A stretch of 64,000 bases of DNA from assembly GCA_016285575.1 (NCBI GenBank), contig JAEEQX010000003.1, positions 781 through 64,780 on the forward strand, given 5' to 3'. The stretch comes from Lachnospiraceae bacterium (GTDB lineage: Bacteria > Bacillota > Clostridia > Lachnospirales > Lachnospiraceae). Within the stretch, counting starts at the first letter, position 1. Each line of letters begins with the position of its first letter. The notes below the pieces were generated by a model. That model saw only the letters and a program-made list of their open reading frames with translations, was not told where the DNA came from and did not search any database. Below, piece after piece: positions 9,993-50,289 of the stretch. Position numbers and translations under genes: made by a program.

Positions 9993-10355
9993 TTATTTAT
10001 ATTTCTTTTTAATAGCCTTGAATGTCTCATCAGAGATAACATGTTCTATTCTGCAGGCATCTTCGGACGCGGTCTTCTCACTCACCCCAAAGTCTATAAG
10101 CATCTTGGTAAGATAAGTATGCTTTTCATATGTCTTCTTAGCTATCTTGCCACCTGCTTCGGTGAAATCAATATATCCGTTAGCATCAACTGTAACATAG
10201 CCTTCCTTCTTAAGGTTAGCTAAAGCAATACTTACGCTGGGCTTGGAGTAATTCATCTCCTTAACAATATCTATAGCTCTAACGTGCTCTAATCCTCGTT
10301 TCTTTAATACAAGTATTGTTTCGAGATACATCTCGCCTGATTCATATATAGCCAT
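9993..10355 (-). CDS. DtxR/MntR-family metal-dependent regulator, copy 1
   Basis: EMYLETI, SKPSVS recognition helix, KH, EDACRIEH; start at ATG 10355 after SD AGGGGG. Confidence 0.92.
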   Translation of the reverse strand: MAIYESGEMYLETILVLKKRGLEHVRAIDIVKEMNYSKPSVSIALANLKKEGYVTVDANGYIDFTEAGGKIAKKTYEKHTYLTKMLIDFGVSEKTASEDACRIEHVISDETFKAIKKKYK

Positions 10356-10459
10356 ATTTATCCCCCTGTGGTCACATATTTTCAATTCACTTTATATATT
10401 ATAAGACCGCTTCGTTAGAAAAACAATACAGAAGTTAGACTAATCGAACTGGCGGAGAA

Positions 10460-11998
10460 CTATACTTTTTCTAAACTGACAGCTCTACCCTTTTCAATAA
10501 ACAGCGTATGATCACAACATGTTTCTATCAATTCCGAATCATGTGTTGATACCAATACTGTTTTCCCCATTGATGCAAGTTCCTTGAGCAATTCTCCGAC
10601 TTTTTCCATATGCGAATAATCAAGACCTGATGTCGGCTCATCAAAAAGTAAAAGATTGGCTCCTGCAGCCATTGCAGATGCTATTGCTACTCTCTGTTTC
10701 TGTCCTCCGGATAAAGCCATCGGATGCTGATCTTTATAATCTAGCAGACCTAACGAATTAAGAATATCCAAGCATATCTCTTCACTTAAGTCTTTATTTG
10801 AAAGCATAACTTCTGCTTTGACACTGTCAGTAAAAAGCTGATGATTGACATCCTGCATAACCATATAAGACAGATTGATGCGTTGCGAACCCTTATATTC
10901 CTTACCATCTATTTCTATGGTGCCCTTACAATTGCTTTCAAGACCGCATAAGCAACGAAGAAAAGTCGATTTTCCAGTACCATTATGTCCGATTACTCCA
11001 ATAACCTTACCCTTGGGTAATCTTAATTCCGGTATATTAAGCTGTAAGAATGAGCCATCGCTTTCCTTAAACTTCTTCTTAAAAAAGACATACGTCTTAT
11101 TAGTATATGAAAAATAGAAGTCTCGTAAAATAACTGAATCTTTATCTTCTAAACCTAAACCAATATTTGCATTATTATCAATCGAATCACTGTTCTTATC
11201 TTCACTCAAAAGATGGAAATAATCAGTTCTGATATTAAGAGGACGAAGCTTATAGTATTCAATCTCTTCTTTAGGAAGGTTATTGAATTCTTCTTTAGTC
11301 CACTCATGAGAAATATGGCCATTCTTTACATACAATACTCTATCAACCAAGTCTTTTACATACCATAGTCTATGCTCTGAGATGATAATCGTTTTGCCTT
11401 CATTCTTCCACCCGATAATGATATCCCTAAGATTCTCTATTGCATCAATATCAAGATTGGATGATGGTTCATCAAGTAAGATAATCTCAGGAAGCAGCGC
11501 TGCAACTGAAGCACATGCTATACGCTGTTTTTCGCCACCCGACAGATCAAAAAGACTTCTTTCCAAAAGATTCTCGATATTCATCTTTTGAACTATATCT
11601 TCTTTTCGCTTCTTAATCTCTGATGGTTCAAGTCCTATATTTTCAGGTCCAAAAACAATCTCTCCATCAGTATCTACTGAAAAAAACTGGCTTCTTGGGT
11701 TTTGAAATACAGTTCCTACGATACCTGCCAGATCATATAACTCTGTCTTGGAAATATCTTTTCCCGCAACAGTTACTTCTCCTGTCATCTCACCCTTATA
11801 GTAATGAGGTACCAGGCCATTAATCAGTCTTATCAGAGATGTCTTACCGGAGCCGGAAGCTCCACATAAGAGTAATGTTTCTCCTTTTTTTATATTTAAA
11901 GAAACCTTTTTCAGAGACTCACTTTCTGCTCCCTTATATTGTTGGCATACCTTATTAATCGATATTATATTGTCATTATTCGTTAACGTATTATCCAT
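10460..11998 (-). CDS. ECF-type ABC ATPase with duplicated NBDs
   Basis: GASGSGKT / LSGGEKQ and GHNGTGKS / LSGGQKQ; FQNPRSQFF. Confidence 0.92.
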   Translation of the reverse strand: MDNTLTNNDNIISINKVCQQYKGAESESLKKVSLNIKKGETLLLCGASGSGKTSLIRLINGLVPHYYKGEMTGEVTVAGKDISKTELYDLAGIVGTVFQNPRSQFFSVDTDGEIVFGPENIGLEPSEIKKRKEDIVQKMNIENLLERSLFDLSGGEKQRIACASVAALLPEIILLDEPSSNLDIDAIENLRDIIIGWKNEGKTIIISEHRLWYVKDLVDRVLYVKNGHISHEWTKEEFNNLPKEEIEYYKLRPLNIRTDYFHLLSEDKNSDSIDNNANIGLGLEDKDSVILRDFYFSYTNKTYVFFKKKFKESDGSFLQLNIPELRLPKGKVIGVIGHNGTGKSTFLRCLCGLESNCKGTIEIDGKEYKGSQRINLSYMVMQDVNHQLFTDSVKAEVMLSNKDLSEEICLDILNSLGLLDYKDQHPMALSGGQKQRVAIASAMAAGANLLLFDEPTSGLDYSHMEKVGELLKELASMGKTVLVSTHDSELIETCCDHTLFIEKGRAVSLEKV

Positions 11999-11999
11999 T

Positions 12000-12704
12000 T
12001 TATTTCATAAAGTATTTGTTATAGATAAACACAGCAAGTACAGCAGTAAATGCAATGATCAATAAATAATCCTGAACCTTGAATTTTAAATCCACAATGC
12101 TGCTTCTTTTTACCTTGCCTCCAAGGCCTCTTGTCACAGCTGCAGCTGATAATTCATCGCCTATATTCACACATGAAAACAGTAAGGGAATCATTCTGAA
12201 TTCCATCATCTTGACCGCATTGCCGCCACCGAATCTGATTCCACGCATTTTCATGGCATCACTTATCGCAGCATATTCCTCTTTTATCGTAGGGAAAAAT
12301 CTCATTACAACAGCCAGAGATATCGTGATACCATCAGGCACATGCATCTTTTGCATACTAGATACGAACTCATCGATTTTAGTAGTTTTAACAACATACC
12401 AAGCAGTAATCATGGCAGGAGCAAACTGAACTATAATCGCACAATAGCCAACCAGAAATGCCATAAAGATTCCTTTTGAATCTTCAGTGATACATGTAAA
12501 TGTTAAAACGAGCGCAACGGCGTAAAGAAAGAGGAATCTAATTGCGGATGCATAACGCTTATTACACATCAGAAGGATGATTGGTATCACTGTCATTAAT
12601 ATTCTTACCGCCCATAAAAAAGGTGTCGTTGCGCTCATCATAACCACAGCTGAAACGATGAATATCATATATAGTTTTGTTCTTGGATCAAGCTTGATTT
12701 TCAC
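12000..12704 (-). CDS. ECF transmembrane component T
   Basis: LDPRTK start, VVMRFFPT, AMKMRG, AAVTRG motifs. Confidence 0.9.
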   Translation of the reverse strand: MKIKLDPRTKLYMIFIVSAVVMMSATTPFLWAVRILMTVIPIILLMCNKRYASAIRFLFLYAVALVLTFTCITEDSKGIFMAFLVGYCAIIVQFAPAMITAWYVVKTTKIDEFVSSMQKMHVPDGITISLAVVMRFFPTIKEEYAAISDAMKMRGIRFGGGNAVKMMEFRMIPLLFSCVNIGDELSAAAVTRGLGGKVKRSSIVDLKFKVQDYLLIIAFTAVLAVFIYNKYFMK

Positions 12705-13301
12705 TTAGACAATGCCTGCCTTTTCGAAGTGCTTTTTAACAACTGCTTTTCCAAGGAATGCACCAACACATCCAAAAACAAAACAGAGAATGAGAAGAAC
12801 TCCAATTGTCTTAAAATTGATTGCTCTGAAAAGGTTGTCGCAATATTCCTGAGAATATCCGCTTTCCAAGAGTCCCTCTCTATATGACTTGGCCGTAATT
12901 ACTACAGGGAAATAATTTGCACATATCCAGAGACTGAATACGCCATTGCTTAATACTGTTTTCTTAAAGCTCTTATATTTTCCTGACATTGCAATCAAGT
13001 CTGCTAATACACCCGCTCCAATAATCAAAGGAGCACCAAGATATCCCATACCGGTTACAAACATGATTATTGCCATAAGAACTGACATTATTGTAATCAT
13101 TCCGAACTTCTCTACCTTGGTATAAAAGAGCATCATTGGAATACATCCTACAAGAGGAATCATAATTACATATGATGCAACAATATAAGGATGGAAAAAT
13201 CCAAGCATACCGCAGGCAAACTCAACTACAAAAAGAATTGCTGTAAAAATACCAACTGTAATAAAATCCTTTACTTTAAGTTTCTTATCGTTCATTTTCA
13301 A
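12705..13301 (-). CDS. MptD / Trep_Strep-type ECF S component
   Basis: KLKVKDFITVGIFTAI start, KVEKFGMITI, six hydrophobic segments; first gene of an S-T-A operon. Confidence 0.85.
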   Translation of the reverse strand: MKMNDKKLKVKDFITVGIFTAILFVVEFACGMLGFFHPYIVASYVIMIPLVGCIPMMLFYTKVEKFGMITIMSVLMAIIMFVTGMGYLGAPLIIGAGVLADLIAMSGKYKSFKKTVLSNGVFSLWICANYFPVVITAKSYREGLLESGYSQEYCDNLFRAINFKTIGVLLILCFVFGCVGAFLGKAVVKKHFEKAGIV

Positions 13302-13335: not shown

Positions 13336-13433
13336 GTTAGATGCATCTAACCGTGTTTACGATTAAATGGCAGTTAAGGTTAGTCTTCCTTAACTGCCAT
13401 ATCTTTTATATCATATAGTATTTATTTTATCAA
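13336..13433 (-). promoter_or_regulatory. ECF-1 promoter with DtxR-type boxes and a 5' hairpin
   Basis: TTGATA (13433-28), 17 nt, TGn-TATAAA (13410-05); hairpin 13367-13400; GTTAG-ATGCAT-CTAAC 13336-51; GTTAG-TCTTCC-TTAAC 13379-94. Confidence 0.8.
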
Positions 13434-13459: not shown

Positions 13460-15199
13460 TTATACAGCCAATTTCCAGGAAATTGCTTCCTTACGTTCAT
13501 TAACGAAGTCTTTATATAATCCATCCTTGGCCATAAGTTCTTCATGTGTGCCCTTATCTATAATCTTACCATCAGATACAACCAAGATTTGATCAGCATG
13601 TCTGACAGTTTTTAATCTGTGTGCAATCATAATAATGGTCTTTTCTTTAGTAAGTTCTTTGATTGCTTCTGTAATCTCTGCTTCGTTTTCAGGGTCCACA
13701 TTTGCTGTGGCTTCATCAAGAATGATTATAGGAGAATCCTTCATGATAGCTCTTGCAATTGAAATACGCTGTTTTTCGCCTCCTGACAAAGACGCTCCTC
13801 CCTCTCCGATAATAGTTTCATACCCATTAGGAAGAGTCATAATAAAGTCATGACATCTTGCTTTCTTAGCCGCTTCGATAACCTGATCCATTGAAGCATC
13901 GGGATTACCAAATCTTATATTATTGGCAATAGTATCTTCAAAAAGATACACTCTCTGGAATACGAAACTGAAGTTTTTCATAAGCGAATCGAAACTGTAT
14001 TCCTTGACGTTCTTGCCGTCCAATAAAACCTCACCCGAATTTACATCCCAGAATCTTGCCAAAAGATTAGTTAATGTTGTTTTTCCGCCACCGGAAGGTC
14101 CTACGATAGCTGTGGTTGTCTTTTCAGGTATCACTACTGATACATCATCAATAATGGTTTTTTCCTCATATGAGAAAGATATATTTTTCATTTCGAGATT
14201 CGAGCTTTGGGGCTCAATATCTTCTCCATCAATATCCATAGGTTTGAGCTTTAATACCTCGTCCGCTTTTGAAACAACAATATTTACTGTTCTCATAAGT
14301 GCAGAGAAAGAACCCATCATATCAAGACTTTCATATACCATAAACGAAGAAATAATCATAAGTATTGCATACAAAAGCGACATAGAACCATTAAGGTAAA
14401 ATACAATAGACGCCAAACACATCAATACACCTGTAAGCTTTGTGGTAATTCCCTGTAATGTCATATAAGGAACTACAGCAAACTCAAGTTTAGTATCAGC
14501 ATTTTGCTTTTCAACAATCGCATTCTCAAGTTTTACTGCTGTCTTATCTGTAAGATTAAAATTCTTTACTTCTGCAATGCCAAGCACGTATTCGATTACT
14601 GCCACAACCAAGTTTTCATCGGCCTTATCTTTTCTGGGCGCAACAGGTTTTGTCGCGTTTTGCATAAAAGTATTGAAAACAGAGAAAACTATTATACCAA
14701 GCAGGAGAATCATAGCGATTCTAATATCAAAAATCAGGAGAAAAAGAAATATAACAAACGTCGTTATGATTCCCTGCGTCGATATCATGACAATTCTTGT
14801 TGCAACATCTGCAAGCATTTCCATAGTGTTAGTTGTTATGTTGGTAATCTTTCCGAGACTGTTTTTATTAAAATATCCCATAGGAAGATATCTTAAGTGT
14901 TCTGCAATTTCCATTCTCTTGGAACTGCATGTGTTGTATCCGGCCTCAGTCTGAAGCATCGTTGTTTTTAGTCCTATAAGTATCTGACCAAGTATTGATA
15001 CTCCCATTATCGCAATTGCCATCCATATATTGGTCATACTCATGTTCTTTTCAAGTAATCCTCTTAAAATGATAGCGATCGCAGGAATACGAAGTGTAGC
15101 AAACATTGACTTGAAAACTCCGAGTATCATCGCAGTTAAGAGTTTCTTTCTATTGGTTTTATCACAAAAATCAAAATACAATTTTAAAGTCTTAAACAT
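13460..15199 (-). CDS. ABC transporter permease/ATPase, IrtB/YbtQ-like subunit (pair 1)
   Basis: TMD + NBD (GPSGGGKT, LSGGEKQR, ILDEAT, AHRL); TAATG coupling to the upstream gene puts the start at 15199. Confidence 0.88.
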   Translation of the reverse strand: MFKTLKLYFDFCDKTNRKKLLTAMILGVFKSMFATLRIPAIAIILRGLLEKNMSMTNIWMAIAIMGVSILGQILIGLKTTMLQTEAGYNTCSSKRMEIAEHLRYLPMGYFNKNSLGKITNITTNTMEMLADVATRIVMISTQGIITTFVIFLFLLIFDIRIAMILLLGIIVFSVFNTFMQNATKPVAPRKDKADENLVVAVIEYVLGIAEVKNFNLTDKTAVKLENAIVEKQNADTKLEFAVVPYMTLQGITTKLTGVLMCLASIVFYLNGSMSLLYAILMIISSFMVYESLDMMGSFSALMRTVNIVVSKADEVLKLKPMDIDGEDIEPQSSNLEMKNISFSYEEKTIIDDVSVVIPEKTTTAIVGPSGGGKTTLTNLLARFWDVNSGEVLLDGKNVKEYSFDSLMKNFSFVFQRVYLFEDTIANNIRFGNPDASMDQVIEAAKKARCHDFIMTLPNGYETIIGEGGASLSGGEKQRISIARAIMKDSPIIILDEATANVDPENEAEITEAIKELTKEKTIIMIAHRLKTVRHADQILVVSDGKIIDKGTHEELMAKDGLYKDFVNERKEAISWKLAV

Positions 15200-16953
15200 T
15201 ATGCCACCTCCGAATCCTTCGAAGAAATGTGTGCTTCCCACATCTCTTTGTATAAGGATGATTCTTTCAATAATTCTTCCTGTGTTCCAACGGCTTCTAT
15301 ATTGCCATCGTTAACCACGATTATTTGGTCGGCAGACACTATAGTTGAAAGTCTATGTGCTATAACAATCAATGTCTTACCCTGTACTAGTTTAGCAACT
15401 GATTTTTGAATAATTGCTTCATTTTCAGGATCTGTATAAGCTGTTGCTTCATCAAGAATAACAATCGGTGCATCTTTAAGCATAGCTCTTGCAATACTGA
15501 TTCGCTGTCTTTCACCACCTGAGAGATGACCACCGGCGCCTCCGGCCAATGTATCATAACTGTTTTCAAGATTAGTAATAAACTCATGGCATCCACATGC
15601 TTTGGCTGCATTGACTACATCATCATCAGAAGCGGAAGGATTGCCCATTCGAATGTTTTCCATAATTGTCTCATCGAATAAGTAGTTATCCTGTGATACA
15701 TAAGCTATATACTTGTTGTAATCTTCTAAAGGAATATCCTTAATGTTAATTCCGCCATAAGTAATCTCGCCTTCATCAACATCCCAAAATGAAGCAATCA
15801 GCTTTGCAATAGTTGATTTACCTGATCCTGAAGGACCGACTAGAGCATTAACGCTACCCTCTTTTATCTTAAGATTAATTCCGTGTAGAACCTCTTTATC
15901 CTTATATCCAAAATGAACATTTTTGAACTCGATATTATTGTCAACAGGTAATTCCTTGGCTGTCTTAGGACGAATCAATTCTCTTTTATTAAGAATAGAT
16001 GTAGCCTCGTTAATGATTGCACCTGTTTTTGATAATTCATCCATATGTCCGGCAATAATCATAAAAGGAGCAATAAGTCCAAGTGATAATATAATCAACA
16101 TAAGCGCATCAGATGCTTCGATACGACCGGTCATATAAAGCCAACCGGTAAAAGGAAGTAAAGAGATTAAAAAGCTCGGCATTATCGACATCGCAAGATT
16201 CTGCCATACATTACATCTTCTCATCCATTCAATAAAACAATCAGCACCCTCTTTTGCAGCTACAACTAATTTTTCGTACGAAGTTTTTGATTTACCAAAA
16301 GCCTTGATTACTTCAATACCGTTAATATATTCAACCGCTGTGTCATTAAGTGCCTTGGTCTTAATCATTGTATTCTCAAAACTTTCCTTCGCACCTACCA
16401 TCATAAGAGAATAAAAGATTCCACCCACAGGTACACATATCATAGCCAATAAAGTTAGTTTCCAGTTGATTATAAGCATTATAACGAACACGCCTACAGG
16501 TACGATTGCGTTAGATATAAGCTCCGGCACTATATGCGCTAAGGTTGTCTCTACCGAATCAACTCTCTCAACAATGATATTTTTAAGTGATCCTGAAGAA
16601 TCATCCAATACATCTCCAAGAGGCATAAGGCTTAACTTCTTGGTCAAATTTCTACGTATCTGTGCCAATACTCCGAATGTAGCCTTGTGAGATGCTGTAG
16701 TCGAAAAAGCATGAAACAACTTATTTATAATCCAGCATATACATATTAATCCGCACTGAATCAAATAATACTTCATATCTGCGTTGCCCTCGATAAGCGC
16801 TGCAACTATTCTGGCTACAAAGAAATAAGGAACGAATCCTGCAGCTACACTGATAATCGCGAATATAACACTGAACACATAGGATGGAGCATCCATCTTG
16901 GTGAATTCAAGAACCCACGATATCATTGACTTGTTTTTTGTCTTTTTGTCCAT
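15199..16953 (-). CDS. ABC transporter permease/ATPase, IrtA/YbtP-like subunit (pair 1)
   Basis: SHKATF, ETTLAHIVPE, GPSGSGKS, LSGGERQR. Confidence 0.88.
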   Translation of the reverse strand: MDKKTKNKSMISWVLEFTKMDAPSYVFSVIFAIISVAAGFVPYFFVARIVAALIEGNADMKYYLIQCGLICICWIINKLFHAFSTTASHKATFGVLAQIRRNLTKKLSLMPLGDVLDDSSGSLKNIIVERVDSVETTLAHIVPELISNAIVPVGVFVIMLIINWKLTLLAMICVPVGGIFYSLMMVGAKESFENTMIKTKALNDTAVEYINGIEVIKAFGKSKTSYEKLVVAAKEGADCFIEWMRRCNVWQNLAMSIMPSFLISLLPFTGWLYMTGRIEASDALMLIILSLGLIAPFMIIAGHMDELSKTGAIINEATSILNKRELIRPKTAKELPVDNNIEFKNVHFGYKDKEVLHGINLKIKEGSVNALVGPSGSGKSTIAKLIASFWDVDEGEITYGGINIKDIPLEDYNKYIAYVSQDNYLFDETIMENIRMGNPSASDDDVVNAAKACGCHEFITNLENSYDTLAGGAGGHLSGGERQRISIARAMLKDAPIVILDEATAYTDPENEAIIQKSVAKLVQGKTLIVIAHRLSTIVSADQIIVVNDGNIEAVGTQEELLKESSLYKEMWEAHISSKDSEVA

Positions 16954-16966: not shown

Positions 16967-16986
16967 GAGTTAGTTTAGTCTAACTC
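16967..16986. promoter_or_regulatory. DtxR-type box upstream of ABC pair 1
   Basis: GAGTTAG-TTTAGT-CTAACTC, directly upstream of the SD. Confidence 0.8.
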
Positions 16987-17055: not shown

Positions 17056-17676
17056 CTATTCTGCGAGGCCGAAGATTCTCTTCCATCCTGCAACACAATA
17101 TTCATCCAATCTTTTTGCATACGCGATGGCTTCTTTTTTAGAGAAATCATGTACCACTGTTTCAAAAATGGCATTGATATTGGAAGTTACAAAAAGATGT
17201 AATTCTTTTTTGGGAATTGGATTAGTCTTGATTCCGTTTTCTTTGAGTTTCTCAATATACTCAATAGTCGCTTTTTCCTCCATACTTGCAAGTTCATGTA
17301 TGAAATTTTCATATGCAGTACCTTGAGATTTGCATACTAACAATTTAAAAGCATTGTAATTATCATAGATATATTTTGTAACCCAGACAGTCTCCTCGTC
17401 GCCTTCCCATATATCTTCCGCCGTCTTATTCTTAATATCTGCGTATTCTTTATCAAGTATTTGATTGTACTTTTCTTTTAATCCGTTATACGCAGGCTCA
17501 ACCAACGAAGCAAACATATCTTCCTTGCTGGAAAAATGTTTATATAGACCCGATGCACTCATCTGGCAATTACTCGCTATCCTTCTCATAGAAGCATCAA
17601 CGAAGCCATATGTCATAAACTCTTCATAAGCTGCATCTACTATTTTTTCATGATTCTCAGATTTATCTCTTGGCAT
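17056..17676 (-). CDS. TetR/AcrR-family regulator 1
   Basis: MPRDK start, ASMRRIA..MSASGLYKHFSSKEDMF HTH. Confidence 0.92.
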   Translation of the reverse strand: MPRDKSENHEKIVDAAYEEFMTYGFVDASMRRIASNCQMSASGLYKHFSSKEDMFASLVEPAYNGLKEKYNQILDKEYADIKNKTAEDIWEGDEETVWVTKYIYDNYNAFKLLVCKSQGTAYENFIHELASMEEKATIEYIEKLKENGIKTNPIPKKELHLFVTSNINAIFETVVHDFSKKEAIAYAKRLDEYCVAGWKRIFGLAE

Positions 17677-17687
17677 AAATACCTCTT

Positions 17688-17747
17688 TAGCGAACACTGT
17701 ACTCTTAAAACCTTTTATAGAATACACTGTTCGCTAACGCTTGTCAA
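17688..17747 (-). promoter_or_regulatory. tetR-1 promoter with two pseudo-palindromic operators
   Basis: TTGACA 17747-42, 17 nt, TATTCT; sites TAGCGAACACTGTACTCTT (17688-706) and TAGAATACACTGTTCGCTA (17718-36). Confidence 0.65.
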
Positions 17748-17862: not shown

Positions 17863-18135
17863 TCAACACTCCTTCAGAACTTCCCACATCGTGCCCATGT
17901 TTTTAAAGCCACCTTCAGGCGCACAGCTTTTACACTTTTGTCCATCCTTGCATCCACCACAAGTAGAGCAATCATGTCCCTGAGCTTCAACGTAGCCTGT
18001 TCTTCTTATTACGCCCATGCGCTCTAAAAAGTCCATATCTCTTTGAACATTCTCTGTGGATTCCCCTAATTCTTCAGCGAGCATTTCTATAGTTCTGGAT
18101 CTTCCGTCTTTTAACAATTCAATTAGTTTTTGCAT
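17863..18135 (-). CDS. feoC: FeoC-like winged-helix protein with Cys cluster
   Basis: wHTH N-terminus plus CSTCGGC-x5-CKSC; directly after feoB. Confidence 0.75.
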   Translation of the reverse strand: MQKLIELLKDGRSRTIEMLAEELGESTENVQRDMDFLERMGVIRRTGYVEAQGHDCSTCGGCKDGQKCKSCAPEGGFKNMGTMWEVLKEC

Positions 18136-18160
18136 AGGACCTTCTCCTAAAAAAACATAT

Positions 18161-20185: not shown

Positions 20186-20186
20186 C

Positions 20187-36619: not shown

Positions 36620-36622
36620 ATT

Positions 36623-40503: not shown

Positions 40504-40542
40504 CAGTAAAATCAAAAAAATGTTTCACTAATTCTTTTCTAT

Positions 40543-41043
40543 TTACCTGTCTATAATTCTTCTAACCGTCTCTTCAATTGAAGATTCACCTTCATCTATG
40601 ATGATATCTGCATATTTTTCGTATAATACGCTTCTCTCCTCATACATTTCATCCAGACTTTCACCGTCTCTTAATACTACACCTCGTTCTCTTATCTCAT
40701 GTAACCTGTCAAAAAGTTTATCCTTTTCGACCTTAAGATATATAATTGCCCCATTCTCTGAAAGATGCCTCATTCCTCTCTCGCTGTATACCGCGCTTCC
40801 ACCTGTAGCAATTACTGTATTAACAGTATTGATTGATAATAAAGCTTCTTCCTCACACGCAAGGAATCCATCTACTCCTCTGTCATTGATAATTTCGTAT
40901 AAGAGAGAATCCTCTTTTTGCTGTATAACAAGATCCGTGTCAATAAAGTCCATGCCTAAAACTTTAGCAAGTATTACACCTACTGTACTTTTACCGGATG
41001 CCGGCATCCCTATTAATACTATGTTGGTTTTCTTTTTATTCAT
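40543..41043 (-). CDS. aroK: Shikimate kinase
   Basis: GMPASGKST, FIDTD, VIATGGS, ER..LYEKYAD. Confidence 0.92.
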   Translation of the reverse strand: MNKKKTNIVLIGMPASGKSTVGVILAKVLGMDFIDTDLVIQQKEDSLLYEIINDRGVDGFLACEEEALLSINTVNTVIATGGSAVYSERGMRHLSENGAIIYLKVEKDKLFDRLHEIRERGVVLRDGESLDEMYEERSVLYEKYADIIIDEGESSIEETVRRIIDR

Positions 41044-41075
41044 ATTTTTATCCTACTATTGAATTATTAATAATT

Positions 41076-41114
41076 ATATCCGCCTGAGAGTCAACTGACA
41101 AATCAGGCGGATAT
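41076..41114. repeat. Palindromic repeat element, copy 2
   Basis: ATATCCGCCTGA-GAGTCAACTGACAAA-TCAGGCGGATAT, 12-bp perfect stem. Confidence 0.75.
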
Positions 41115-43208: not shown

Positions 43209-43211
43209 ACA

Positions 43212-43634
43212 TTACGCTTCTTTCTTCTTAGCTGACTTTTTAGCCTTGGAATCATCTTTTTTCTCTGTATCTGCTTTTGTACTCTTCTTAGCAGTTGTTG
43301 CTTTTGTAGAAGCCTTCTTTGTAGTTTTAGCTTTCTTTTCTTCTTTTGCTTCTTCTACAACTTCTTCGACGATTTCTTCAGCTTCATCTTCAACTTCTGA
43401 CTCTTTTTCTTTTGCAGCTCTTTCTTCATTGATAACCTTAGCTTCTTCATAGATATCACAGCAGTTTTCCTTTACAGCTGTAGCCTGATCCATAACATAA
43501 TCTTTGGCTCTCAATACACCTGCTGTACAATGTGTGTATACCTTCTTAGCATCCTTGGAACATAACATCTTAATGCCCCATAAACCAAACAATGTACCCC
43601 CTGCGAATAATGCGATTCCTTTCCACACTTTCAT
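43212..43634 (-). CDS. P1B-ATPase-associated small membrane-anchored protein with acidic and Lys/Ala-rich tail
   Basis: N-terminal TM, KKVYTHCTAGVLRAKD, then EEEVVEE and KKASTKATTAKK low-complexity tail; 3 nt upstream of the ATPase. Confidence 0.7.
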   Translation of the reverse strand: MKVWKGIALFAGGTLFGLWGIKMLCSKDAKKVYTHCTAGVLRAKDYVMDQATAVKENCCDIYEEAKVINEERAAKEKESEVEDEAEEIVEEVVEEAKEEKKAKTTKKASTKATTAKKSTKADTEKKDDSKAKKSAKKKEA

Positions 43635-43658: not shown

Positions 43659-43750
43659 GTTAGATATGTCTAACTCTCTGTAATAAAAAATACGCGCCCT
43701 TAGGCGCTTTTAGATGCATTAATTGTAAATCAATTATATGATTTTTTCAA
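43659..43750 (-). promoter_or_regulatory. P-ATPase operon promoter with DtxR-type box
   Basis: TTGAAA 43750-45, 17 nt, TACAAT; GCGCC-CTTA-GGCGC hairpin; GTTAG-ATATGT-CTAAC 43659-74. Confidence 0.78.
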
Positions 43751-43844: not shown

Positions 43845-45158
<1,314 letters not shown>

Positions 45159-45260: not shown

Positions 45261-45316
45261 GTTAGTTATCGCTAACCTTAAACATAATATCATTCATCGA
45301 GTTAGTTGTCAATAAC
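45261..45316 (-). promoter_or_regulatory. eno promoter with two DtxR-type boxes
   Basis: TTGACA 45312-07, 17 nt, TGn-TATTAT; GTTAG-TTATCG-CTAAC 45261-76; GTTAG-TTGTCA-ATAAC 45301-16. Confidence 0.78.
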
Positions 45317-45329: not shown

Positions 45330-46088
45330 TTAGCTATTAATTAATTTAGTAATACCCCTCACAAACTTCTTAGGTCTATAAGGTGCAAGTCCTCCATGAC
45401 CCACGTTCCTGATAACTCTGAATCTTGTGTTAGGATATATCTTTCTTATATATGCTATATCCGCTTTTCTGTCCTTAATCTCTTTTTCAGCAATCCAATA
45501 CTCTATCTTTTTGCAATTGGTATGTATGTACCTGGGCATGGTGTAATTATTGCAAGAGTCAAATGTTCTCCAGATAGTCTTAGCACTGATCATCTTGAGC
45601 ACTTTTGCTGCGTAATCTATATCTTCCTTGGATAATTCATCAAGAGAAAACGCTTTTTCCAAGAGATTGGCTCCTCCGATTTTTCCCATGTATATCATCA
45701 GGAAATCTTTTATTGCAATAAATCTTGTGAGAATCCAAGGCAATTGATAAGGTGTGATACCTCCATCGATTACTGCATTCTCGATATTAACTCGATTATT
45801 CGCAAGCATCCTAGTTACAATTGATCCCCCCATAGAGCATCCATATATACAAGTTACAGTATTTAGATTATTTCCAATCAGCCATTTCTCCAGGTCTCTT
45901 GATATTTGTTCAATACTTGTAAAGTCATCCTTTCTTGCAGGATTATACCCGGGTAACGCAGGAACTATCACATGATAATCCTTTTCAATTAAAGGAATTA
46001 CATCCTGAAAATAATCCCACATAACAATTGAAGGATGAATCAAAACTATTACCTTGTCATTATCTTTTCCATATTCATGTATTGTCAT
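45330..46088 (-). CDS. Alpha/beta hydrolase
   Basis: MTIHEYGKDN start, IHPS, GCSMGG, VGHGG. Confidence 0.85.
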   Translation of the reverse strand: MTIHEYGKDNDKVIVLIHPSIVMWDYFQDVIPLIEKDYHVIVPALPGYNPARKDDFTSIEQISRDLEKWLIGNNLNTVTCIYGCSMGGSIVTRMLANNRVNIENAVIDGGITPYQLPWILTRFIAIKDFLMIYMGKIGGANLLEKAFSLDELSKEDIDYAAKVLKMISAKTIWRTFDSCNNYTMPRYIHTNCKKIEYWIAEKEIKDRKADIAYIRKIYPNTRFRVIRNVGHGGLAPYRPKKFVRGITKLINS

Positions 46089-46128
46089 AATTATTCAAAA
46101 TCCTCCGATTTTTGTGGATGAAAAAATT

Positions 46129-46632
46129 TTAAAACTTAATTAAAGAGCATATCCATGCAGCGAGTGCTGATGCCGCAGGGAATATTACTAGCAATTTGAG
46201 AAGTTGGCTTTTTATGTTATAACCATATTTTCTGTTAGAATATACGCTATCAACTTCCGGAAAATAGAACTGGAAAAACTTGAACTTCATAAGCAAAAAG
46301 TAGTCAAAGAAAATCATGTCGTATAACTTATACACAGTAAATATGGATACAAATCTTATGAAGAACTGCCAAAATGAGAATCCACTTCTAAATCCATCCC
46401 AGATAGATATTACCCCTACTGAGAGTATCATAAGAAAGCTGAATATCATCAATGTCCATCCGATTTTTCTGGCACCTAGAAACAGTTCTTCTTTTCTGTC
46501 TATCAAAACTTCCTGTGCTTCTTTAGGTGCAGATGAGAAAAACTTTTTATTCTGTATAAAAGCTACCGCCGAAAACATCATCAACGTTATTGCCACACAA
46601 AATATAAGCGCCAGGAAGATTGTCATTAACAT
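46129..46632 (-). CDS. Uncharacterised membrane protein (family B, copy 2)
   Basis: GFRSGFSFW..RF..LYDMIFFD; start 46632 after AAAGGAG. Confidence 0.65.
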   Translation of the reverse strand: MLMTIFLALIFCVAITLMMFSAVAFIQNKKFFSSAPKEAQEVLIDRKEELFLGARKIGWTLMIFSFLMILSVGVISIWDGFRSGFSFWQFFIRFVSIFTVYKLYDMIFFDYFLLMKFKFFQFYFPEVDSVYSNRKYGYNIKSQLLKLLVIFPAASALAAWICSLIKF

Positions 46633-46671
46633 ATCACTGTACTCCTTTAAATATGTGTTTCCAATTATCAA

Positions 46672-48396
46672 CTATGATTGAAGAGAAACCATATGTGCAT
46701 ACACTCCATCATCTCTCATGAGTGTATCGTGATTGCCCTGCTCTACTATCTGACCATCTGATATAACGAGTATCTGATCAGCATCTTTAATAGTTTTAAG
46801 TCTATGCGCAATTACAAGTAATGTCTTGTTCTTGCAAAGTTCTGAAATAGCTTCCTGGATTGCTCTCTCATTATCTGCATCCACACTGGCTGTAGCCTCA
46901 TCAAGGATAACTATTGGCGAATCCTTAAGAATACATCTTGCAATAGATATTCTCTGCTGTTCACCACCCGATAACGATGCTCCGCCCTCACCAACTACAG
47001 TATCGAATCCATTGGGAAGCGCCATAATAAAGTCATAGCATCTTGCCTTTTTTGCAGCTTCTTCAACTTCTTCTTTTGTAGCATTAGGACGTCCTATTGC
47101 AATATTGTTATAGATTGTATCCTGGAACAAATATACTCTCTGGAAGACCATACTTATCTGATCCATAAGGTTTCCGAGCTTAACATCCTTGATGTCTTTT
47201 CCTCTAACCTTGATGCTTCCTGTTTCAATATCCCATAATCTCGCAAGAAGTGATGCTATAGTTGATTTACCGCCACCGGAAGGTCCGACAAGTGCTGTCA
47301 TCTCGCCCTTATTAACCTTGAATGATACATTCTTAAGTACATCTTTGTCAGTGTATCCGAAGCTTACGTTTTCATACTCTATCTCAGGTACAGCTAAGTT
47401 AACGTCTGATGAAATCTCAGCTTCTCCATTATCTTTTAATTCTTCTGCAGCAAATACTTCTTCGATTCTGTTAAGGCTGGCTTCTGTAACTGTAAGTCTG
47501 GCCATCTGCGCATAATAACTTTTAACTGCTACAAATAAATCGAAAATAAAGAGTGCCATTCCGACCATATAAATATTACTAATCGAACCTATGTTGTATA
47601 AATAAGCGCACAACGCCAGAACCAATGAAGTTCCAATAGCAAATGTAAGATTAAGTGCTCTGGACCAAGGGGTATAATCGATTTCAAAACTGATGCTGTC
47701 TTTACAGCTTTTTTCGAATTCATCAGTAAGTTTCTTGGACTTATCACCAAGCATATTGTAGGACTTGATGATTCCGATTCCCTCAGCAAAATCAAGGACT
47801 TCTTCTGTAAGAGATTCTGCGCATTCCTGCTTGGATGCGGAATGTTTCAAGGTACTCTTTAACATCAAATTTCCAACAAGAATAAATACTCCAACAAAAA
47901 GCAAAGAAAGCAAACCGAATCTTATGTCCATCATAAACATCATTATTACCATGATGCTCTGTGAAATGATGAATGATACTAATTCAGACAAAACACCCAT
48001 GCAATTTTCTTCAATAAACACCATGTCTGTAGAAAGAACTGCGCTGATTTTTCCGATATTGCCTTCTGTGAAATATCCCATCGGAAGTTTTCTCAAGTGA
48101 TCACCAAGCTGAAGTCTCATATCTGCAAATACCTTATAACCCGCTGCAGATTGAAGTACATTGGTAATATGTTCAAATATTGCCTCTAAAATTACGCTCG
48201 CTAGAACTACTATTCCCAGATAAATGCATTTCTTTTTATCCATCGTACCATTCATAAACAAGCTGATTATAAGAAAACTAAGCATCAAGGGTATTTTCAT
48301 CATAATTCCCTTAATGAATGACGTAATATATGATGCTCTGATTCTTGTTTTATATTTACCGGTTATACCGATAAGTCTATGCATTATTCTTAACAT
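46672..48396 (-). CDS. ABC transporter permease/ATPase (pair 3, second subunit)
   Basis: LQSAAGY, GPSGGGKS, LSGGEQQR; start 48396 after GGAGG. Confidence 0.88.
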   Translation of the reverse strand: MLRIMHRLIGITGKYKTRIRASYITSFIKGIMMKIPLMLSFLIISLFMNGTMDKKKCIYLGIVVLASVILEAIFEHITNVLQSAAGYKVFADMRLQLGDHLRKLPMGYFTEGNIGKISAVLSTDMVFIEENCMGVLSELVSFIISQSIMVIMMFMMDIRFGLLSLLFVGVFILVGNLMLKSTLKHSASKQECAESLTEEVLDFAEGIGIIKSYNMLGDKSKKLTDEFEKSCKDSISFEIDYTPWSRALNLTFAIGTSLVLALCAYLYNIGSISNIYMVGMALFIFDLFVAVKSYYAQMARLTVTEASLNRIEEVFAAEELKDNGEAEISSDVNLAVPEIEYENVSFGYTDKDVLKNVSFKVNKGEMTALVGPSGGGKSTIASLLARLWDIETGSIKVRGKDIKDVKLGNLMDQISMVFQRVYLFQDTIYNNIAIGRPNATKEEVEEAAKKARCYDFIMALPNGFDTVVGEGGASLSGGEQQRISIARCILKDSPIVILDEATASVDADNERAIQEAISELCKNKTLLVIAHRLKTIKDADQILVISDGQIVEQGNHDTLMRDDGVYAHMVSLQS

Positions 48397-48397
48397 C

Positions 48398-50131
48398 TTA
48401 CGCCTCCTTAATCTTCCAAGTACTTGCGGATACGCTTGCATCCCATAACTTCTTGTATTCCGCGCAACTACTCAATAAATTATCATGAGTATCAGCAGCA
48501 ATGCATTCTCCCTCTTTCATAACGCATATTTTATCTGCGTTCTTTATAGTTGAGAGTCTATGTGCAATAACAAGTACTGTCTTGTCCTTAATAATCTCGT
48601 TGATAGCTGCATTCATCTTCTCTTCATTCTCAGGATCCATGAATGCGGTAGCTTCATCAAGTACTATGATGGGCGCATCCTTAAGAATCGCTCTCGCAAG
48701 AGATATACGCTGTCTCTCACCACCGGATAACTGCTTACCGGAATCGCCTGCAGAAGTATTGATTCCGTCAGGAAATCTAGCCAAAAACTCATCGCACTGA
48801 GCTCTGGATGCTGCTTTAAGCACTTCTTCTTTTGTTGCGTTAGGTTTTCCAATCAAGATATTTTCATATAAAGATGTATTGAATAAGAACTGCTCCTGAG
48901 ACACGTATGCAACTTGGTTGTTAAGCGCCTCGAGTGTCATATCTGTTAGATCCTGTCCGCCTATTGTGATATTACCCTCGTTGATATCATAGTAATGCAC
49001 AAGCAACTTGGCTAATGTAGACTTTCCACTTCCTGATTCACCGACAAGAGCAGTTGTACTTCCTGACTCGAGTGATAAATTTACTCCATGAAGTACTTCC
49101 TTATCATCATAACCAAAACGTACATTATTGAAAGATACATCAAGATTAGTTCCCTTAAAATCATTGTTTCCTTCCTTAAGAGGAGGATGTTCCATCATCT
49201 TTTCAAGTTCAGCAATCTTGTAATCAAGTTGGGGGAATTTTCCTGCAAAATTAAGTGCCTTTAAGAATGAAGGTCCGACTGCGAATGACATGCAAAGAAC
49301 AAGAACTAACTTATCAAGCGTGATTGCGCCGGACAAAACCATCAAACCGCCTATAGGTAATATAAGAAGCGCAAGGCAGGGAAGGATACTGGAATACGCT
49401 GCCATCCAAGGCCAGCAAACCTTATACCAATTCAATGTAAAATCTCTGTAGTTTCTGACTACTTCGCCAAATCTCTTATATGAATCACCATCCTTATTGA
49501 ATACCTTAACGACTTCCATACCGTTTACATATTCAATAATTGTGTTGTTCATCTTAGCTGCAGATTCATAATATGCATTCATTAGAGACAAACCGGATTT
49601 CATCATCATTCCCATTGCAAGCAGACCAATAATTAAAGGAACAAATGATAAAAGAGCCAGTCTCCAATCGACTACAAACATCAGTACAATAATAAGTGAA
49701 GGAATGAATATATTTGCAATTCCTTCCGGTATGGCATGTGCTAAAAGCAATTCAATCTGATCTATGTCATCAGTAAATACTTTTTTTATTCTTCCTGTTC
49801 CAAGTTCCTTGATATTACCGAGCGGCTGTCGTTCAAGTTTGCCCTGCAATGAAATACGCAAGTTCTTAAGCGTATTGTATGCACTGATATGCGAAAACAC
49901 CAAGCCTTGAGTATAAAGAACAGCAAATAATAATTCGCTTATAGCAACAAACAACACTCTAAGAAGAATAAACTTAATGTCTAATTCTTCTCCTCTCGTA
50001 AGAGGTGAAATAATCTGATAAACAAAAAAATACGGCAGTATGCTTGCAACTATTCCCAGCGCCATTAATACAGCTGCCGCTACAGTATATTTTTTGTATT
50101 TACCAATATACGGAGCAACTCTTTTAAACAT
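48398..50131 (-). CDS. ABC transporter permease/ATPase (pair 3, first subunit)
   Basis: SHISAY, LLAHAIPEG, GESGSGKS, LSGGERQR; start 50131. Confidence 0.88.
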   Translation of the reverse strand: MFKRVAPYIGKYKKYTVAAAVLMALGIVASILPYFFVYQIISPLTRGEELDIKFILLRVLFVAISELLFAVLYTQGLVFSHISAYNTLKNLRISLQGKLERQPLGNIKELGTGRIKKVFTDDIDQIELLLAHAIPEGIANIFIPSLIIVLMFVVDWRLALLSFVPLIIGLLAMGMMMKSGLSLMNAYYESAAKMNNTIIEYVNGMEVVKVFNKDGDSYKRFGEVVRNYRDFTLNWYKVCWPWMAAYSSILPCLALLILPIGGLMVLSGAITLDKLVLVLCMSFAVGPSFLKALNFAGKFPQLDYKIAELEKMMEHPPLKEGNNDFKGTNLDVSFNNVRFGYDDKEVLHGVNLSLESGSTTALVGESGSGKSTLAKLLVHYYDINEGNITIGGQDLTDMTLEALNNQVAYVSQEQFLFNTSLYENILIGKPNATKEEVLKAASRAQCDEFLARFPDGINTSAGDSGKQLSGGERQRISLARAILKDAPIIVLDEATAFMDPENEEKMNAAINEIIKDKTVLVIAHRLSTIKNADKICVMKEGECIAADTHDNLLSSCAEYKKLWDASVSASTWKIKEA

Positions 50132-50171
50132 AATTAATCCTTTCTGTAATGATGTATTATTACCGTAGAAT

Positions 50172-50289
50172 GAGGCAGATTGAAGAATCAATCCGCCTCT
50201 CCTGAAATGTGTAAAAGAAAATGTGTTATTCTAGTTAGTTGTTTCTAACCTTCTGTATATTAGCACTCGAAGAGTTAGTTGTCAATAAC
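50172..50289 (-). promoter_or_regulatory. ABC pair 3 promoter, two DtxR-type boxes and a leader hairpin
   Basis: TTGACA 50285-80, 17 nt, TGn-TAATAT; GTTAG-TTGTTT-CTAAC 50234-49; GTTAG-TTGTCA-ATAAC 50274-89; hairpin GAGGCGGATTGA-TTCT-TCAATCTGCCTC 50199-72. Confidence 0.78.

Follow-up and report, generated by a model that had tools for sequence, protein, structure and literature searches.

A 64,000-nucleotide stretch of a Lachnospiraceae bacterium genome (GenBank GCA_016285575.1, contig JAEEQX010000003.1, positions 781 to 64,780; hereafter the window) carries energy-coupling factor (ECF)-type importers, ATP-binding cassette (ABC) half-transporter pairs, two Feo systems and a set of hydrolases and methyltransferases, most of them behind copies of one short palindromic operator. 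In the most economical reading, to which we give an even chance, this is an iron-starvation regulon island of rumen Clostridia, governed by an EqbA-type DtxR-family repressor without an SH3 domain and serving the use or neutralisation of foreign chelators. How the strictly anaerobic Clostridia that dominate rumen and gut obtain their iron is poorly understood, and they are considered to make siderophores only rarely. The transport core of the island is that of equibactin-like systems, with the synthetase not in view and the modules multiplied. New here are the extent to which the EqbA operator marks a regulon in Clostridia, a freely circulating cassette without nonribosomal peptide synthetase (NRPS) genes, and a co-regulated toolkit of enzymes and DUF6796 proteins; literature searches on TIGR02185, PF09605, DUF6796, EqbA regulons and ECF-type xenosiderophore uptake in Clostridia gave nothing past papers on Streptococcus equi, Clostridioides difficile and Mycobacterium avium subsp. 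paratuberculosis.

The window is low in G+C (34-43%) and nearly all of its genes lie on the minus strand. Pfam scans covered the 40 main open reading frames (ORFs) between 9,993 and 50,191, and 60 ORFs for the whole window. An earlier reading of the same DNA (the original prediction) had described positions 9993-50191 as a candidate system for xenosiderophore capture. Each item of its inventory was present, at the coordinates given, according to Pfam, but the list had left out FeoA-FeoB1 and the HMA protein, three TetR genes, a small helix-turn-helix (HTH) gene, DUF6110 with a P1B-type ATPase, enolase and shikimate kinase. Its range also fell short: the same boxes continue to 60.9 kb, over flavodoxin and a feoA-feoA-feoB2-dtxR2-ZIP operon, so that the island is better set at about 10.4-60.9 kb. 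With Feo, flavodoxin, ZIP, P-type ATPase and enolase genes among its contents, the region is a general iron-starvation regulon island rather than the dedicated capture system that had been proposed.

An EqbA-type operator recurs across the island

Searching for GTTAG-N6-CTAAC with at most one mismatch returned 23 sites in the window, all of them intergenic, against 1.22 expected from 100 dinucleotide-preserving shuffles (largest shuffle count 5; none of the 100 reached 23). The sites share a 16-bp palindromic core and, with flanks, the consensus R-GTTAG-N6-CTAAC-Y. They precede 12-13 transcription units between 10.4 and 60.9 kb, where they lie over the core promoter or immediately after it: MptD1-ECF1 (and, weakly, DtxR1), ABC pair 1, MT11a-HMA-feoAB1, ABC pair 2, TetR3-BAAT1, the divergent block A and ECF module 2, MT11b with block B, DUF6110-P1B-ATPase, enolase, ABC pair 3, flavodoxin-DUF3793 and the feoB2-dtxR2 operon, the last with four sites (Table 1).

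The original prediction had spoken of a DtxR-type box. A recurring box is indeed there, but it is not the classic one: the 19-bp DtxR/IdeR sequence TTAGGTTAGCCTAACCTAA had no match in the window at up to three mismatches, and the core is of the EqbA type instead. EqbA, a DtxR-like protein without SH3 domain that represses the equibactin locus of S. equi, has its operator AACTATTATTGTTAGATGTATCTAACAATAATAGTT upstream of eqbB; in electrophoretic mobility shift assays the palindrome was required for binding, which Fe2+, Zn2+ and partly Mn2+ promoted (Heather et al. 2008, PMC3672683). The core of that operator is exactly GTTAG-N6-CTAAC, letter for letter the box of the window.

On the minus strand the best sigma-70-like promoters coincide with boxes at the flavodoxin (fld), enolase (eno) and ABC pair 3 genes. 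At eno and ABC3 the -35 hexamer lies inside one box and a second box follows the -10, and at fld, which has a consensus promoter just upstream, the box begins directly after the -10. This is the layout of a repressor. Because the box persists in related cassettes with a DtxR but not a TetR gene, we assign it to the DtxR-family protein; for the same reason, and because of the match to the EqbA operator, the TetR proteins are unlikely binders.

DtxR1, encoded by the last gene of ECF operon 1, is a protein of 130 aa without an SH3 domain, and its alignment to DtxR stops at residue 118. Its best matches in the Protein Data Bank (PDB) are DtxR/IdeR (1e-12). A Met, Cys, Glu and His align with M10, C102, E105 and H106 of the primary metal site of DtxR, the Met standing where S. 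equi EqbA has Asn. The island resembles the actinobacterial DtxR/IdeR regulons in placing a metal-dependent repressor with primary-site ligands over iron-uptake promoters, and departs from them in half-sites spaced by 6 nucleotides (nt) instead of 1, in the missing SH3-like domain and in an ancillary metal site that is not conserved. From this we infer that DtxR1 senses iron and is the chief protein to bind the boxes, and that a second family member, DtxR2, may share or modulate its sites.

Three of the boxed promoters (MptD1, MT11a and MT11b; 13370-13414, 21560-21606 and 40430-40475, minus strand) carry in addition a hairpin or palindrome with an 18-bp stem about 10 nt upstream of a perfect box. 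As RNA it folds at -28 to -31 kcal/mol (z-scores -6 to -8), with compensatory changes between the stems; the DNA sequence is GGTTAA-N14-TTAACC, whose half-sites resemble those of the box. The element may be a leader structure in the transcript or an operator of a second type. Rfam at gathering thresholds gave nothing over the whole window, and these hairpins belong to no known RNA family. MT11a and MT11b have 44 identical nucleotides in common in their promoter/leader regions (21560-21640 and 40430-40510) though the proteins are only 27% identical, and the regulatory region seems to have been copied independently of the gene.

ECF importers and a circulating cassette without synthetase

Two MptD-S/T/double-ATPase modules, one of them ending in a DtxR gene, had been predicted, and Pfam and TIGR02185 confirmed both. 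The S-components belong to Pfam Trep_Strep/MptD and pass the NCBIfam model TIGR02185 'MptD family putative ECF transporter S component' (MptD1 at 142 bits against a cut-off of 76). Each module encodes S, T and A/A' together, as dedicated (group I) ECF transporters do. This family has direct genetic support as a metal-chelate importer from S. equi, where deletion of eqbHIJ abolished the iron overload of an eqbA mutant and lowered 55Fe accumulation; eqbHIJ was required for equibactin-dependent 55Fe accumulation and eqbKL was not (PMC3672683). By analogy, a chelate-import role for the ECF modules of the window is well founded.

One genome per species was scanned with the two MptD proteins, giving 50 loci (here and below, loci are numbered L); flank counts use the 35 loci with at least 7 kb downstream, and a box was counted when it lay within 150 bp upstream of MptD. 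The nearest loci, with modules 73-83% identical to ECF module 1 (best MptD1 match 83%), are in rumen organisms from different families, namely Lachnospiraceae metagenome-assembled genomes (MAGs), Mageeibacillus, Saccharofermentans and Ruminococcus flavefaciens MA2007 and YL228, and some 35 loci at roughly 45% identity come from human and animal gut Clostridia. When all locus ORFs were compared with the window proteins, a conserved order emerged: MptD, CbiQ, double ATPase, ABCa, ABCb, DtxR. A box precedes MptD in 38 of the 50 loci; among the 35 well-flanked ones, an ABC pair is present in 29, a DtxR gene in 23 and a second MptD in 9.

The gut cassettes (L016-L057, and C. difficile RT023 element 023_CTn1, PMC6814731) share this order with the window, and their box lies 30-50 bp upstream of MptD. 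Their proteins and those of the window are 44-51% identical. They carry AraC instead of TetR and one module of each kind, are mobile and are linked to an NRPS in a minority of cases, whereas the window has no AraC gene and a wider regulon. Directly after NRPS genes, with the AraC gene between, the cassette stands in Faecalicatena contorta, Blautia ammoniilytica and Dorea ammoniilytica. The linked set comprises A-PCP, a saccharopine-dehydrogenase-like protein, TubC_N-C-A-PCP, a thioesterase and a PCP-reductase, and is the set that was reported from the conjugative element 023_CTn1 as an equibactin-like cluster (PMC6814731). The ECF trio of the window is 45-47% identical to that of one NRPS-linked cassette, L032. 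No NRPS lies within 10 kb in 32 of the 35 well-flanked loci, and an NRPS-free 7.9-kb AraC-MptD-ECF-ABC-DtxR cassette is 94-98% identical at the nt level across Fusicatenibacter, Dorea, Blautia, Zongyangia and a Coriobacteriaceae MAG (L019-L030, L033, L036). Such identity across families points to very recent horizontal transfer of the NRPS-free version, to which the NRPS-linked one is only 79% nt-identical.

The link to the transport and regulatory core of equibactin, first proposed from gene content, emerges stronger, the operator core being that of the shift-tested EqbA site. DtxR1 has the iron ligands, and the cassette is NRPS-linked in three gut species. Like the equibactin locus on ICESe2 (Heather et al. 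2008, PMC3672683), the window has an SH3-less DtxR repressor with the same operator core, an MptD-kind ECF trio, fused ABC half-transporters in pairs and an accessory alpha/beta hydrolase. Unlike it, the window lacks the NRPS genes (eqbB-G, M, N), has two ECF modules and three ABC pairs in place of one of each, brings in TetR regulators together with a large set of enzymes and DUF6796 proteins, and places under the operator a regulon of 12-13 chromosomal units, with feoAB, flavodoxin, ZIP, P1B-ATPase and enolase among them. The likeness of the ECF trio and ABC pairs to EqbHIJ and EqbKL is one of family and architecture, and runs by way of cassette L032. The mptABCDEF island of M. avium subsp. 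paratuberculosis (LSP14, PMC4132290), an organism that cannot make its usual siderophore, resembles the window by description in its MptD-family protein and two ABC systems within a metal-acquisition island; it is actinobacterial, and neither an EqbA-type box nor the enzyme set is reported there.

These comparisons bear on whether the organism makes a metallophore of its own, with an NRPS or other chelator pathway elsewhere under the same box and the window supplying regulation, ECF import, ABC export and tailoring or release. In S. equi this transport core works for a siderophore of the cell's own making, eqbKL is exporter-like and the alpha/beta hydrolase EqbN is needed for optimal production (PMC3672683). 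Three exporter-type pairs would fit best with something secreted, and the cassette does occur beside an NRPS in the three species named above. Yet the window proved as free of NRPS as the original prediction had said: Pfam found no AMP-binding, Condensation, PP-binding or Thioesterase domain in its 60 ORFs, and no NRPS, polyketide synthase (PKS), NRPS-independent siderophore (NIS) or opine-synthase domain in the 64 kb or in the flanks that related metagenome contigs reveal (roughly 8.5 kb on the left, 2 kb on the right), whereas in known equibactin-like loci the NRPS is directly adjacent. Since most well-flanked cassettes also lack a nearby NRPS and the NRPS-free version spreads alone, we regard a producer as rather unlikely. 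The source is an uncultured bacterium of rumen or gut, and genes identical to those of the window are on record only from short metagenome contigs of ruminant samples.

ABC half-transporter pairs and the enzyme set

The three ABC heterodimers were confirmed, as were the canonical motifs in all six nucleotide-binding domains (NBDs) and the absence of an N-terminal flavin adenine dinucleotide (FAD)/siderophore-interaction domain. Each half (580-597 aa) consists of ABC_membrane and ABC_tran with no extra Pfam domain, its transmembrane domain (TMD) beginning within the first 20-45 residues, and every NBD has canonical GxxGxGK[ST], LSGGE, hhhhDEA and AHR motifs. At 30-37% mutual identity the six are old paralogues. 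All fell far below every curated NCBIfam cut-off, so no functional subfamily can be given to them. Pair 1, the pair that was compared with the PDB, is 46-47% identical to the ABC pair of cassette L032; its top half-transporter match was YbtP (6p6i_A, 277 and 273 bits), with IrtA at about 260 and exporters close behind (PCAT 268, Sav1866 260, MsbA/TM288 238 bits). Like YbtPQ of Yersinia and IrtAB of Mycobacterium, siderophore importers whose fold is of the exporter type, the window pairs are heterodimers of fused TMD-NBD halves with both ATP sites canonical, although even for EqbKL only about 30% identity to these importers has been reported. They differ from IrtA in having no N-terminal siderophore-interaction domain, which excludes the IrtA architecture only, as YbtPQ lack that domain too.

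The original prediction had called these pairs uptake modules. Iron regulation and ECF chelate import hold from its capture hypothesis, but this name is not justified: in S. equi, eqbKL was not needed for iron import and cross-feeding suggested a role in efflux (PMC3672683), the margin of YbtP/IrtA over exporters is small, and pairs 1 and 2 each have a TetR gene next to them. Of the relatives examined by genetics, the closest (eqbKL) behaved as non-importers, unlike YbtPQ and IrtAB. From the S. equi genetics, the position of the TetR genes and the coupling to cytoplasmic modifying enzymes, we lean towards efflux of apo or modified ligand. A TetR gene with an ABC pair recurs in L014, L043, L045, L048, L058 and L080.

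The six alpha/beta hydrolases, four methyltransferases, one ATC-hydrolase-family protein and six unknown membrane proteins that had been listed were all recovered by Pfam. The hydrolases are three BAAT_C, one Abhydrolase_3, one Abhydrolase_6 and one weak match, with GxSxG in five of the six; they have neither signal peptide nor transmembrane anchor and are cytoplasmic. PDB sequence searches with the enzymes turned up no more than generic esterases of the HSL family, ACOT4 and the PP2A leucine carboxyl methyltransferase (LCM). Two methyltransferases are Methyltransf_11 (MT11a, MT11b), one is of the membrane PEMT/ICMT type and one is LCM (PF04072, 68.1 bits against a cut-off of 22.3; TIGR00027, 61.3, below its cut-off of 93.55). 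The best precedent for what iron-regulated methyltransferases beside chelate transporters may do is Staphylococcus aureus Spm, an LCM/TcmP-family enzyme, Fur-repressed in the fhuD1 xenosiderophore operon, that methylates the carboxylate of pyochelin and thereby inactivates it (Jenul et al. 2023, PMC10592502). The likeness is by family and by its company of xenosiderophore-uptake genes under iron repression; the siderophore that Spm acts on is a foreign thiazoline compound, and Spm itself is a single Fur-controlled enzyme, accompanied by an Fhu binding protein in place of ECF and ABC pairs.

The ATC_hydrolase-like protein matches PF14196 at 35.3 bits (cut-off 28.1) over profile positions 67-143 only, and no NCBIfam or PDB sequence relative was found. 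A thiazoline-ring hydrolase, as this partial match might suggest, would be a weak assignment. In its alignment C156, C175, C195 and C201 are invariant and C192 nearly so, a C-x2-C-x5-C-type cluster that suggests an Fe-S or zinc site. The membrane proteins comprise four DUF6796 members, 18-21% identical to one another and constantly paired with a cytoplasmic hydrolase, and two paralogues of 170 and 180 aa. DUF6796a had 26 relatives by word search and 586 clusters by profile search (E<=1e-3, among 1.84 billion representatives). Its AlphaFold2 (AF2) model is all-helical and confident, with a predicted local distance difference test (pLDDT) score of 91.8. DUF6796 proteins were also considered as extra ECF S-components, and this was rejected because the model matches neither the six-helix fold of an S-component nor any other fold in the PDB.

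Whether such enzymes accompany the transporters in other genomes, on which the original prediction had staked itself, was checked by neighbourhood comparison, and they co-occur with ABC pairs and boxes. The enzyme/DUF6796 set accompanies ABC pairs, boxes and genes of iron metabolism (for a Shr-like heme-binding domain, ferric reductase, Feo and flavodoxin) in L025, L011, L016, L058-L060, L064, L067-L070, L073, L074, L076, L080 and L081. A metagenome scan with the DUF6796 alignment gave 17 rumen-type loci. In the human-gut Lachnospiraceae locus L025, two boxes, three Methyltransf_11, Abhydrolase_3, ATC_hydrolase, two unknowns, LCM and an ApbA-type reductase are followed by the cassette, and L011, L016 and L027 have smaller versions of this arrangement. 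L058 and L059 show a TetR-ABC pair, MptD-CbiQ-ATPase and then DUF6796, BAAT_C and a 166-aa protein on the same strand, in L058 with an AMP-binding enzyme after the trio. L060 has five DUF6796, two ATC_hydrolase, three BAAT_C, Methyltransf_11, a macrolide-type glycosyltransferase and an aldo-keto reductase, with a Shr-like heme-binding protein and ferric reductase behind two perfect boxes. The 72-kb contig L064, whose DUF6796a is 93% identical, repeats blocks B and A, TetR3-BAAT1-TetR2 and ABC2 with their boxes; at the corresponding place it lacks ECF module 2 and aroK/MT11b, so that modules have been gained or lost between close relatives as strain-variable insertions in the island. Block A is conserved as a block in L064, L068 and L069, and L067-L070, L073, L074 and L076 combine members of these families with ABC pairs, P-ATPase/DUF6110, FeoB1/HMA and a box-preceded enolase. 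The ATC_hydrolase-like family is much more widespread (587 matches); in L080 and L081 it lies with TetR-ABC pairs, ZIP, DUF6796, methyltransferases, BAAT_C, DUF3793-flavodoxin and enolase, and boxes mark where the operons begin. In a subset of lineages, spanning several genera, the enzyme set is part of this regulon, and its tightest partners are TetR-ABC pairs rather than ECF importers.

That partnership could also be one of defence. The TetR-controlled ABC pairs, esterases and methyltransferases would then detoxify or expel foreign chelators or metal-binding toxins (competitors' siderophores, ionophores or plant polyphenols) under metal starvation, with the ECF modules a separate route of nutrient uptake. 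Fur-regulated carboxyl methylation by Spm, which disarms pyochelin (PMC10592502), has possible counterparts in the two carboxyl-type methyltransferases of the window (LCM and PEMT/ICMT). TetR genes beside pairs 1 and 2, the occurrence of the enzyme set with ABC pairs and without ECF in L080 and L081, the macrolide-type glycosyltransferase of L060 and the efflux assigned to eqbKL by S. equi genetics (PMC3672683) agree with it. All three ABC-pair types, however, are elsewhere fused in operons with MptD-ECF (ABC2 in R. flavefaciens L010/L057 and Roseburia L050, ABC3 in L041, ABC1 in the gut cassette), DUF6796, BAAT_C and the 166-aa protein directly follow the ECF module in L058, and no resistance-family model was reached. 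We consider defence as the main function rather unlikely.

Metal-homeostasis genes and the metal that is sensed

Two Feo operons lie in the island. The HMA-FeoB1-HTH run of the first recurs in L067, as does the box-preceded DUF6110 and P1B-ATPase pair (the ATPase reaching 504 bits in TIGR01525 against a cut-off of 346); the flavodoxin-DUF3793 pair recurs with its box in L081. The second Feo operon encodes DtxR2, whose first PDB match is MntR (2e-16). It has Asp at the position of DtxR M10 and Gly/Asp at the other selectivity position, and so does not have the DtxR/IdeR primary site.

The regulon might accordingly sense manganese, zinc or metals in general, its transporters handling other metals or chelates, and yersiniabactin-type ligands do carry other metals too. 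The MntR-like DtxR2, the Zn2+- and partly Mn2+-dependent DNA shift of EqbA (PMC3672683) and the ZIP, HMA and P1B-ATPase genes of the regulon would suit such a role. Two feoAB operons and a flavodoxin are nevertheless hallmark genes of iron limitation, the Met/Cys pair found in DtxR1 marks Fe2+ selectivity in DtxR (PMC3672683, discussion), and in L060 the Shr-like heme-binding domain and ferric reductase stand behind boxes; a primary signal other than iron is thus quite unlikely. Least probable of all, and very unlikely, is a small chelator built without NRPS by the enzymes and DUF6796, exported by the ABC pairs and re-imported as its metal complex through ECF: the two-box enzyme operon of L025 with its ApbA-type reductase directly before the cassette and the AMP-binding enzyme after the DUF6796-BAAT_C trio of L058 speak for it, but Pfam gave only tailoring and hydrolytic types in the window, with no ligase, ATP-grasp, IucA/IucC, nicotianamine-synthase-like or pyridoxal phosphate (PLP) enzyme, and from one close relative to the next the genes are shuffled in order and make-up, as would be unusual if the pathway were fixed.

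Several observations on these units stand apart from the argument. The box-preceded enolase, a glycolytic Mg-dependent enzyme within an iron-starvation regulon, recurs in L067, L073, L010/L054 and L081. The shikimate kinase after the P1B-ATPase may be a passenger. A CA-rich simple tract, CAACACAACACACAACACACACAA, lies at 51430-51460 between the boxes and the flavodoxin ribosome-binding site. Between feoB2 and dtxR2, a 67-aa membrane protein (57586-57789), conserved on identical contigs, ends in the Cys-rich tail CGGNCAHCKMCTACK.

Table 1 Features of the island, with positions in the window, strand and basis of assignment
Feature	Position	Strand	Basis and remarks
DtxR1, EqbA-like two-domain repressor, last gene of ECF operon 1	9993-10385	-	Pfam Fe_dep_repress + Fe_dep_repr_C
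ECF module 1: MptD1 S 12705-13301, CbiQ T 12000-12704, fused double ATPase 10460-11998	10460-13301	-	Pfam
ABC pair 1: ABC1a 15199-16953, ABC1b 13460-15241	13460-16953	-	Pfam, motifs; EqbKL-type
TetR1	17056-17727	-	Pfam TetR_N; upstream of ABC pair 1
MT11a 20862-21503, HMA protein 20466-20843, FeoA 20187-20414, FeoB1 18161-20185, small HTH 17863-18135 (operon)	17863-21503	-	Pfam, ORF; two boxes upstream
ABC pair 2: ABC2a 23392-25155, ABC2b 21657-23399	21657-25155	-	Pfam, motifs
TetR3 26909-27505, BAAT_C hydrolase 1 25956-26903, TetR2 25247-25918	25247-27505	-	Pfam; box 27553; order kept in L064
Block A: DUF6796b 31432-32079, Abhydrolase_3 esterase 30532-31419, DUF6796a 29817-30515, ATC_hydrolase-like 29115-29813, membrane PEMT/ICMT methyltransferase 28576-29097, LCM/TcmP-type methyltransferase 27638-28468	27638-32079	-	Pfam
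ECF module 2: MptD2, CbiQ, double ATPase	32240-35166	+	Pfam, TIGR02185; divergent from block A
Block B: MT11b 39747-40388, DUF6796d 38958-39569, BAAT_C 3 38080-38934, BAAT_C 2 37166-38146, 170-aa membrane protein 36623-37135, weak alpha/beta hydrolase 35861-36619, DUF6796c 35167-35805	35167-40388	-	Pfam
Shikimate kinase	40543-41043	-	Pfam; after P1B-ATPase
DUF6110 43212-43634, heavy-metal P1B-type ATPase 41118-43208	41118-43634	-	Pfam; one box (43659)
Enolase	43845-45146	-	Pfam; behind two boxes
ABC3a 48398-50191, ABC3b 46672-48441, 180-aa membrane protein 46129-46671, Abhydrolase_6 45330-46088 (operon)	45330-50191	-	Pfam, motifs
Flavodoxin 50998-51420, DUF3793 50297-50875	50297-51420	-	Pfam; two boxes; past the earlier range
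FeoA 60561-60773, FeoA 60302-60523, FeoB2 57850-60285, Cys-rich 67-aa protein 57586-57789, DtxR2 (MntR-like) 57206-57604, ZIP 56388-57179 (operon)	56388-60773	-	Pfam, ORFs; gene calls on identical contigs; past the earlier range
Box, one mismatch	10434-10449		Between ECF ATPase gene and DtxR1
Two boxes	13336-13394		Upstream of MptD1; distal one inside long hairpin/palindrome
Box	16969-16984		Upstream of ABC pair 1
Two boxes	21537-21597		Upstream of MT11a-HMA-feoAB1
Box	25185-25200		Upstream of ABC pair 2
Box	27553-27568		Upstream of TetR3-BAAT1
Two boxes	32114-32220		Divergent promoter region, block A and ECF module 2
Two boxes	40405-40464		Upstream of MT11b/block B
Box	43659-43674		Upstream of DUF6110/P1B-ATPase
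Two boxes (45261, 45301)	45261-45316		Over enolase promoter
Two boxes (50234, 50274)	50234-50289		Over ABC3 promoter
Two boxes (51481, 51530)	51481-51545		Downstream of flavodoxin promoter
Four boxes, spacing 30-35 bp	60797-60912		Over feoA-feoA-feoB2 promoter

Other repeats and flanking genes

A different palindrome, ACATAACATTGTTATGT, is present with variants in two to three copies at 55533-55635 and 56302-56387, flanking TetR4 and preceding a pair of ABC-ATPase and FtsX proteins (MacB-like, 1065 aa). This looks like an independent TetR4-controlled efflux unit without an EqbA box, inserted between two boxed units. A G+C-rich hairpin (ATCCGCCTGA...TCAGGCGGAT, with the common core GTTGACTCTCAGGCGGAT) occurs downstream of the P-ATPase gene (41050-41110) and downstream of MT11b (39600-39700), and may be a terminator-like repeat. 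The left flank (1201-9645) has no boxes and lies outside the regulon; it encodes BioY-BirA, two response regulators (one with an HD-GYP-like domain, HD_5) next to a hybrid histidine kinase, a solute-binding protein and a BD-FAE/Abhydrolase_3 esterase. Between the DUF1284 and low-molecular-weight (LMW) phosphatase genes, the related strain L001 has a RhuM-family gene and two small ORFs (741-1441) where the window has a 65-bp spacer (674-738).

Proposed mechanism and significance

In the reading that we favour, Fe2+-bound DtxR1 would occupy the boxes and block transcription, and the MntR-like DtxR2 may contribute. Iron shortage would derepress the two Feo systems, ZIP and the P1B-ATPase for ionic metal traffic, flavodoxin for iron sparing, and the two EqbHIJ-type ECF importers, whose MptD S-components would take up metal-chelates of the equibactin/yersiniabactin kind. 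Such chelates would most likely be made by other members of the community, since the window contains no synthetase. Also derepressed would be the three EqbKL-type ABC heterodimers, the esterases and thioesterase-like hydrolases, the methyltransferases, the ATC_hydrolase-family protein and their partner membrane proteins. The enzymes would most likely modify the imported ligand in the cell, freeing the metal, disarming the chelator, as Spm does with pyochelin in S. aureus, or both; the ABC pairs would then expel the apo or modified ligand, and the neighbouring TetR regulators would add ligand-specific induction on top of metal control. The direction of ABC transport and the enzyme chemistry are the steps that we infer only. 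More tentatively, and as a possibility clearly short of even, the DUF6796 and 170/180-aa proteins, the BAAT_C/HSL hydrolases, the methyltransferases and the Cys-cluster ATC_hydrolase-like protein may constitute an unrecognised pathway of strict anaerobes for the iron-starvation-induced processing of metal-chelates inside the cell, working with TetR-gated ABC heterodimers of exporter fold and MptD ECF importers.

Several points weigh against this picture. The iron response of the regulon is deduced from homology, and the signal may be broader than iron because DtxR2 is MntR-like and EqbA answers Zn2+ and Mn2+ as well. A producer pathway could lie elsewhere in the genome, as only the short flanks described above are visible. 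An enzyme homologue was present in just 4 of the 35 well-flanked MptD loci, and L080 and L081 have no MptD module within 10 kb, so that the enzymes may be tied to pumps rather than to import. Among PDB half-transporters ABC pair 1 is nearest, by a small margin, to the importers YbtP and IrtA, which would argue against efflux. The enzymes reached no curated NCBIfam functional model; the AF2 model of the ATC_hydrolase-like protein (pLDDT 89.7) has weak fold matches to H-NOX/Bet3 (E 8e-3, template-modelling (TM) score 0.37-0.43), and that of DUF6796a has no fold relative in the PDB (best E 0.64, TM 0.2-0.3). In sheep and cattle rumen metatranscriptome contigs, transcripts are clear for flavodoxin (in sheep) and enolase; ABC2, MT11a, LCM, P-ATPase, ZIP and FeoB2 are represented by scattered low-depth fragments, and the DUF6796/hydrolase blocks by none. 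These transcripts carry no information on regulation.

The EqbA-type operator, known from one streptococcal element, appears to mark a wide iron regulon in Clostridia, so that the sequence rule GTTAG-N6-CTAAC should find iron-starvation genes there. The cassette of importer, efflux pair and regulator that circulates, mostly without a synthetase, at 94-98% nt identity across genera would be a signature of siderophore exploitation in gut communities. Several orphan families gain a context, namely DUF6796, the 170/180-aa membrane proteins, DUF3793, DUF6110 and the ATC_hydrolase-like Cys-cluster protein, and R. flavefaciens MA2007 and YL228 are cultured carriers. If the processing pathway is real, it would serve metal release together with the disarming or recycling of the ligand, and non-producers in rumen and gut would both live off and blunt the siderophores of their neighbours.

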